DNA of 63,437 bases, filler included, from Collodictyon triciliatum (taxonomy: Eukaryota): assembly GCA_043381765.1 (NCBI GenBank). It is 11 parts of 11 records of this genome, joined end to end, with 100 filler letters (N's around TTAATTAATTAA, not from the genome) between each part and the next. Parts side by side here need not be neighbours in the genome. Positions count along the whole stretch, not along the records: positions 61,278 to 63,437 come from JBHJMP010004446.1; 10 more parts are not named here. One strand, 5' to 3'. Position 1 is the first letter of the stretch, and each line of letters opens with the position of its first letter. The translations under genes were made by a program, and so were the position numbers. Of the stretch, positions 62,832 to 63,437 are shown piece by piece. The notes under the pieces were generated by a model. The model had not been told where the DNA came from, did no database searches, and saw only the letters and a list, made by a program, of their open reading frames with translations.

Positions 62832-63437
62832 ATGAAGAAAAGAAAACTTCTTGAGTTTGAGAATCTTAAGTCTGTAAAACCAGACTATCAAAATGTGAAA
62901 ACATCTCTAAAGTCGATTGTAAAGAATGCGGATGACTATGACAAAATCAACGATACGGTTTTATTGTGTCATAATTTGGTTAGCGACGCCTATCTGTTTG
63001 CAAGATGTTACATATTGAAATCACAACAGCTCCCAACAATCGATGAAATGTTTTCTTTATATGCTTTACAGACAATTGGAGTAGTTTCACAAGATAGACC
63101 CGCAAGATTAAAAAAAAAACCCATTTATGAGCGATGACATGATGATTTTTTATCTCTATGATTTTCGATTCCTTTTGTATCGAGAAGAACGATTTCTGTT
63201 GGTTGGACTGTCTCATGCATTACCGTACTTGGCGAAGCAAATGTTGACAGCTTATTATAATAACATTAAGGAGCATTTTGTGAAGAGGTCACTGCGCTTT
63301 ATAAATCAAACAGTTCCTAAAGATGTGAATATTACGGATGCTATTAAAAAGGCAGAGTTATCAAGCTTAAAAAAAAAAAAAAAGACATCTCAAAAAATCT
63401 CTAAATATACGAAAAAAAAAATAAAAGAAGAAAAAAA
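62832..63437 (+). mobile_element. Fanzor1-like (TnpB/Cas12-related RNA-guided nuclease) N-terminal region, frameshifted, running off the window
   Basis: The first frame reads MKKRK..VKTSLKSIV..INDTVLLCHNLVSDAYLFARCYIL..LPTIDEMF. Removing one A from the A10 run (63110-63119) continues into an open frame to the window end: ..LSHALPYLAKQMLTAYYNNIKEHFVKRSLRFINQ... Both blocks match the Fanzor1 N-terminal pattern as I recall it. The RuvC domain is not in the window. Confidence 0.75.

Follow-up and report, generated by a model that had tools for sequence, protein, structure and literature searches.

A frame-shifted 5' portion of a Fanzor1-type gene at the end of a 2.16-kb assembly fragment: a likely decaying copy of a multi-copy element

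Fanzor1 proteins have been on record since 2013, in animals, fungi, protists, amoebae, algae and giant viruses, where, according to the same account, they ride on Mariner, Helitron, Sola, IS4-like and MuDr elements, with intact and broken copies often occurring side by side (PMC3627910). Bao and Jurka give the pattern D-X(125,275)-[TS][TS]-X-X-C4-X(5,50)-RD as the motif of Fanzor and TnpB (PMC3627910). For SPu-1, 9 of 17 full-length copies are described there as having intact ORFs, the others being broken, and the ends are given as 33-bp terminal inverted repeats with TA duplications (PMC3627910). The mechanism and structures of Fanzor1 are also already known: as reported in PMC11423790, the guide is positioned by the WED/REC part, which also reads the TAM by means of a conserved Arg loop and helix alpha-4, and H126 and Y130 of GtFz1 are among the TAM-contacting residues.

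We analyzed a window of 63,437 nucleotides (the whole stretch of DNA under study), at the end of which a sequence-only reading had recognised a Fanzor1-like gene, hidden by a homopolymer frameshift at the window edge. The features discussed below are collected in Table 1.

Table 1. Positions of assembly pieces, linkers and Fanzor1-related features in the window
Feature	Position	Strand	Remark
Piece 1	1-6758
Linker 1	6759-6858
Piece 2	6859-10881
Linker 2	10882-10981
Piece 3	10982-17737
Linker 3	17738-17837
Piece 4	17838-24592
Linker 4	24593-24692
Piece 5	24693-31446
Linker 5	31447-31546
Piece 6	31547-38301
Linker 6	38302-38401
Piece 7	38402-45154
Linker 7	45155-45254
Piece 8	45255-51985
Linker 8	51986-52085
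Piece 9	52086-58833
Linker 9	58834-58933
Piece 10	58934-61177
Linker 10	61178-61277		N44 + TTAATTAATTAA + N44; separates the Fanzor piece from the rest
Piece 11	61278-63437		2160 bp; carries the Fanzor fragment; starts in (TTTG)n, ends A-rich
ORF1	62832-63137	+	101 codons from ATG 62832, start MKKRKLLEFENLK; stop TGA 63135-63137
Fanzor1 codons 1-94	62832-63113	+	MKKRK start, first WED strand VKTSLKS, first REC helices; ORF1 frame
A10 run	63110-63119	+	first frame change, ORF1 to ORF2 frame, after which ORF1 stops
Fanzor1 codons ~96-181	63115-63375	+	REC helices with the YLAKQMLTAYYNNIKEHF motif; ORF2 frame
ORF2	63127-63435	+	listed from ATG 63127; 3'-open
A15 run	63369-63383	+	frame probably changes again, returning to that of ORF1
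Tail	63384-63437	+	putatively homologous to the relatives' coding sequence, by codon-compatibility; protein-level score not significant

The 5' portion of a Fanzor1-type gene

The start codon of ORF1 is the first ATG past a stop, an in-frame TAA lying upstream at 62802-62804. A single four-base step at the A10 run, whose boundaries are exactly those in Table 1, joins ORF1 and ORF2 into a reading of 177 residues (P0001). This is the join that had been proposed from the sequence, namely the dropping of one A behind a stretch that starts with MKKRK, and the downstream frame is stop-free to the last base as had also been claimed. The Fanzor1 motifs named in the sequence-only reading appear in P0001 in order (VKTSLKS, FARCYIL, LPTID and YLAKQMLTAYYNNIKEHFVKRSLRFIN), and in HMMER alignments they line up with the matching stretches of SpuFz1 and GtFz1.

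P0001 was searched against 5.8 billion proteins with a word-indexed search, which returned P0002, of 648 aa and 62% identical across 99% of P0001 (E 2e-59), and P0003, of 331 aa (E 4.5e-58), matches well outside the range of chance. Against all PDB chains (E<=10) it gave four rows, the top three of which are the three solved Fanzor1 proteins: GtFz1 of Guillardia theta (E 6.8e-6, query residues 21-169, across the junction), SpuFz1 of Spizellomyces punctatus (E 0.11) and PpFz1 of Parasitella parasitica (E 0.14). The fourth row is a 21-residue peptide (E 0.87). The joined frames, searched with HMMER, do find a known Fanzor protein, and the identity that had been read from motifs is borne out. A tblastn panel of 155 family proteins was also used, comprising 150 from the HMMER list of P0002, P0002 and P0003 themselves, and three cluster members. 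It can be seen that 95 of the 155 match the window at E<=0.01, all inside 62832-63360, that 41 panel proteins match both frames in collinear order, and that tblastn found no Fanzor sequence on the other pieces of the window.

In an alignment of 21 sequences P0001 is collinear with the family from Met1, and it retains all ten invariant or near-invariant residues in range, with K23, L26, Y54, F56 and L62 on the ORF1 side and F106, Y107, T139, N144 and F149 on the ORF2 side. Pfam gave chance-level matches only on the fragment (DegQ, Sof1). At 0.34-0.35, the G+C content of the fragment resembles that of the non-coding DNA around it, and the other ORFs lie slightly higher (0.37-0.52). The N-terminal WED/REC part, by which membership of Fanzor1 was judged, is alignable and collinear with the family from the start codon onwards. 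By sequence comparison, the assignment of this N-terminal part to the 5' portion of a Fanzor1-type gene is secure.

The fragment represents the first 180-200 codons, about the first third, of a gene for Fanzor1, the eukaryotic and giant-virus homologue of TnpB. It takes in the basic N-terminus and the first WED strand, together with most of the REC helices. By analogy with the solved Fanzor1 complexes, this WED/REC part would help to hold the guide-target duplex and to read the TAM. The full-length gene of the lineage, as represented by P0002, would continue to the RuvC Asp-Glu-Asp centre and a zinc-finger TNB domain. Judging from the relatives and the literature, its product would be a DNA endonuclease guided by omegaRNA, with its gene borne on a transposon. 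For the window copy, the RuvC triad and the C4 zinc finger between RuvC-II and RuvC-III would lie past the end of piece 11, and the 3' end of the gene, at which, or at the right transposon end, the omegaRNA would be encoded, is absent from the window.

P0002 itself, the closest full-length relative, matched only three proteins when searched against all PDB chains at E<=0.01, which are GtFz1 (2.1e-28), PpFz1 (2.7e-24) and SpuFz1 (3.7e-23); chains of TnpB, Fanzor2 and Cas12 were absent from its matches at this threshold. By these matches, the window gene is nearer to Fanzor1 than to Fanzor2 or to prokaryotic (IS607-type) TnpB. P0002 carries DPGK at 364, EFRTSK at 555, cysteines at 562-590 and RD at 603-604, with a RuvC triad of D364, E555 and D604, and these motifs fit the published Fanzor and TnpB pattern. 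Its match to PF07282 (OrfB_Zn_ribbon) was weak and under the cut-off (E 0.11). PF26935 (DUF8286) is precomputed for P0002, and the local Pfam search of P0002 did not return it.

In an exhaustive HMMER search with P0002, E<=1e-3 was reached by 3147 cluster representatives, of which 537 also reached E<=1e-30. A search for closer relatives, limited to proteins of 97-310 residues, found P0157 (139 aa, 76% identity to the window reading), P0158 (137 aa, 79%), P0159 (143 aa, 79%) and P0160 (149 aa, 50%). All four lie on contigs of 534-740 bp, as is expected for a repeat family that breaks assemblies. P0157-P0159 share the MKKRK start with the window, as do P0002 and P0005, which are both intact and complete relatives of 648 aa. 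On sequence identity, the window together with P0157-P0159, P0002, P0003, P0005 and P0006 is a subgroup of its own, the next relatives falling to 37%. A scan of metagenome contigs with P0002 gave one distant locus, L001, at 21% identity.

An assembly piece behind a linker

Ten identical linkers, each N44-TTAATTAATTAA-N44, cut the window into 11 pieces. We take this arrangement to be the customary all-frame-stop spacer for stringing contigs. Eight of the pieces measure about 6.73-6.76 kb and the others 4.0, 2.2 and 2.2 kb; most have microsatellites or homopolymers at their ends. The spacing of the N runs, about 6.85 kb, had suggested a tandem or rDNA array; this was rejected, as self-BLAST gave no repeat, Rfam gave no rRNA, and the flanks are contig linkers. 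The contiguity of the window is broken, and because the linkers stand between the pieces, gene neighbourhood across them carries no meaning. The Roc-COR, NHL, Sel1, WD40/ephrin-receptor-like and sulfotransferase ORFs and the WD-repeat gene of the window are therefore not demonstrated neighbours of the Fanzor fragment. The gene had been placed at the window edge, and it does reach the last bases; that edge, however, is the end of the 2160-bp piece behind the last linker, and probably a contig end rather than an arbitrary cut.

Within piece 11, inverted repeats were of low complexity only, the right end being missing, and the 1.55 kb upstream of the Fanzor fragment yielded neither terminal repeats nor a transposase. 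No second copy of the piece 11 sequence is present elsewhere in the window. Six upstream or antisense ORFs of the piece gave one weak Pfam match, to DUF3959, under the cut-off (E 0.018). Rfam returned nothing at the gathering score for 50000-63437, and on piece 11 at E<=1 it returned only a chance match to CRISPR-DR36 (17.9 bits). A search of sequencing runs found six with 0.06-0.09 of the sampled words, too little to speak of habitat or expression.

The other pieces carry several features of their own. Long Pfam-matched ORFs lie at 380-2152, 4978-6273, 25179-26660 and 8905-9588 (all +), and correspond, in order of listing, to Roc/COR-A, NHL, Sel1 and sulfotransferase. At 38402-40108 (-) a 569-codon ORF combines WD40 with ephrin-receptor-like cysteine repeats; it includes four 126-bp tandem units at 39356-39985, 67-87% alike, and it runs into a linker and is thus cut by a contig end. 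No Pfam match was obtained for the ORFs at 48862-50880, 19572-20462 and 15756-16541, and the first of these (672 aa) gave scores of at most 0.82 against the Atlas, nothing usable. By eye, an ORF at 58990-59460 (-) resembles a RanBP2-type zinc finger in one stretch, of the form C-x2-C...C-x2-C (...WLCTQCRNVNYARREVCNRCQ...). WD-repeat signatures (such as ...DGTIRVWH..., ...VVRVWDL..., ...GSIGIWNL..., ...GFLRLWNI...) were likewise seen by eye in several short ORFs that lie between non-coding stretches at 53933-57833 (+). These ORFs look like one WD40 gene with introns, which would point to an intron-bearing eukaryote; provided that all pieces share one genome, the source may be an intron-bearing, microsatellite-rich eukaryote. 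Both window ends, 1-70 and 63369-63437, are A-rich and of low complexity on the + strand, with runs of A18, A9, A20 and A10 at the start and of A15, A10 and A7 at the end. Runs of nine or more number 51 for A and 27 for T in the window, and a run of 57 N inside piece 10 (60335-60391), flanked by A16 and A26, represents either a gap or a long poly(A) that has been masked.

Frame changes, decay and origin of the copy

In tblastn with P0002, residues 1-96 align with the ORF1-frame part up to 63113 (62/96 identical), and residues 96-178 with 63115-63360 in the next frame (50/83 identical), gapless with the first block. The first frame change is thereby sited inside the A10 run or a few bases past it. 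P0157, P0002 and P0003 read ...LKHPEM... across this junction with no shift. By hand count, the window has four bases more than the relatives' six codons from the Leu codon (63108) to the Met codon (63127), and all four can be placed in the A10 run, which makes this run an expansion of the window copy. A true run length of nine would restore the frame, adding one Lys. Behind the junction, the ORF2-frame part is identical at 59/77 positions to P0157, 61/78 to P0158 and 61/77 to P0159, and both frames are stop-free across the 530 well-aligned bases.

A second change of frame is suggested by the end of the sequence. The relatives P0158 and P0159 run beyond the window end as ...AIKKAELRRLKKAIFKKLEIPEQYKEW..., and the window follows them up to ...AIKKAELSSLKK, where the A15 run begins. 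Past ...AELRRLKK the relatives' peptide fits the DNA best, ungapped, from 63384, and not in the ORF2 frame. Placed there, their next 18 residues are compatible with 36 of 54 bases, a score attained at 6 of 126768 positions (whole window, both strands); best-offset scores were attained in 0-21 of 5000 mononucleotide shuffles. Protein-level alignment of the last 54 bases in three frames gave scores of 13-20 against a null median of 15 and a 95th percentile of 20-21. The frame of 63384 reads DISKNL*IYE, with a TAA at 63402-63404 where P0158 and P0159 have Glu, and the sequence ends 54 bases past the A15 run in A-rich low complexity. Judged from these 54 contig-end bases, the window copy has probably shifted frame once more, again within a homopolymer, and gained a nonsense codon by one substitution. 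Consensus quality at contig ends, where this tail sits, is often poor. The sequence-only reading had named further stops, along with a read-confirmed A10, as the mark of a pseudogene, and the TAA in the homologous frame is such a stop, as far as the 54-base tail can be trusted.

P0157 offers a comparison between frames. Its first 41 residues are a wrong-frame translation of the Fanzor region, and they match the same wrong frame of the window at 33/41 positions; a 30-codon ORF of the window at 62926-63018 is this same wrong-frame reading. In the in-frame parts of P0157 the corresponding counts are 16/21 and 59/77, together 75/98. P0157 thus slips from the wrong into the right frame and carries a frameshift elsewhere than the window does. 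In this small sample, which comprises one relative and 41 + 98 residues, the coding frame appears no more conserved than a non-coding frame, which is what neutral decay predicts. Since the ten conserved residues are kept on both sides of the junction, any decay would be recent.

Taken together, we consider it likely that 62832-63437 is a decaying copy of a multi-copy Fanzor1 element on a 2.16-kb assembly fragment. The copy would most likely be non-functional, with a frame change at A10, probably another at A15, then the TAA and the end of the sequence. An uninterrupted frame, which bears on activity as a nuclease and not on family membership, is lacking in the window copy. The first alternative is an intact, possibly active Fanzor1 gene whose lesions are homopolymer or contig-end errors and whose remaining ~450 codons and omegaRNA would sit on another contig. 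In its favour, the two frame changes are located in A runs and would each disappear with a one-base miscount (A9 for A10; A16 or A13 for A15), the conserved residues are all retained, neither frame meets a stop over the well-aligned bases, uninterrupted 648-aa relatives exist, and run quality may be poor in a fragmented assembly whose pieces mostly end in simple repeats. However, the TAA in the homologous frame is a substitution and not a run-length error, the coding frame shows no excess of conservation, P0157 of the same close group is frameshifted at another place, and the window holds no further Fanzor piece; we regard an intact gene as unlikely. Of the claim that a homopolymer frameshift hides the gene, the frame change at A10 stands, while an otherwise intact gene behind it is not supported.

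Even if the window fragment is a dead sister, its source organism might belong to a lineage still missing from the lists of Fanzor1 hosts and possibly still carry intact 648-aa copies like P0002. We hold this to be a rather doubtful prospect; if true, it would provide a new natural host and a small candidate RNA-guided nuclease.

As to origin, a profile-seeded scan of IMG/VR gave at least 598 candidate stretches, of which at least 377, from giant viruses, encode relatives (best E 2e-29). Several giant-virus bins hold more than one relative (GVMAG-M-3300023174-155 three, GVMAG-M-3300023184-165 two, 3300037328_000012 two), as is expected of mobile elements. The Atlas clusters nearest to P0002 are DUF8286 (PF26935) and mostly Nucleocytoviricota, a lead only. 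The 2.16-kb piece might then come from another organism than the other pieces, such as a giant virus or a co-assembled contaminant, in which case it would tell nothing about the eukaryote named as its carrier, and these viral relatives, together with the linkers that part piece 11 from every other gene of the window, would be in keeping with it. We think this improbable, for the best 80 of the viral relatives (loci L002-L081) are 33-41% identical, against 62-79% for the non-viral matches, and the scan of viral contigs with P0002 gave no close relative; moreover, piece 11 opens with a (TTTG)n microsatellite of at least 100 bases, and its G+C of 33-43% is like that of the non-coding parts of other pieces. 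Among the matches listed, the window subgroup is, by sequence identity, distinct from the viral genes, and the 33-41% identity of the best 80 gives no sign of a recent viral source. Finally, real frame changes might be bypassed by polymerase slippage or ribosomal frameshifting, yielding full protein at a low level, and slippage is known from other systems on A runs as long as the A10 and A15 at which the shifts are located; the restored frame, however, is closed by a TAA, and the relatives with neither run nor shift at the first site argue that slippage is not a conserved device, so that we regard such a bypass as most improbable.

The window copy of the Fanzor1 gene should be entered in annotation as a probable pseudogene fragment rather than as a nuclease that is hidden but active. 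It adds little to the biology, since Fanzor1 is already well known and counts thousands of cluster representatives. The practical value lies in a family recognised correctly from motifs alone and in the recognition of the window as a chain of separate contigs.

Comparison with known systems

P0002 and P0005, with PF26935 where recorded, differ from the window copy in being uninterrupted and complete, and P0157 differs from it in the place of its frameshift. The giant-virus Fanzor1 genes from IMG/VR have the same N-terminal architecture as the window at the low identity given above for the best 80. SpuFz1, or SPu-1-1p (PDB 8gkh), is encoded by a single ORF of 633 aa, compared with 648 aa in P0002, its N-terminus is likewise basic, and its motifs follow one another in the same order. 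The match of P0002 to SpuFz1 is good, and that of the window fragment alone only weak. SPu-1 has defined ends; in contrast, the window offers low-complexity inverted repeats only and no second copy.

Among solved structures, GtFz1 (PDB 9cer/9ces/9cet) gives the best match to the fragment and to P0002 alike. Outside the conserved helices its similarity to the window is low, and the window holds only a broken WED/REC front part of such a protein. Counting offsets on the alignment, H128 and Y132 of the window would stand opposite H126 and Y130 of GtFz1, and, by pure inference, the window lineage might recognise a TAM like that of GtFz1.
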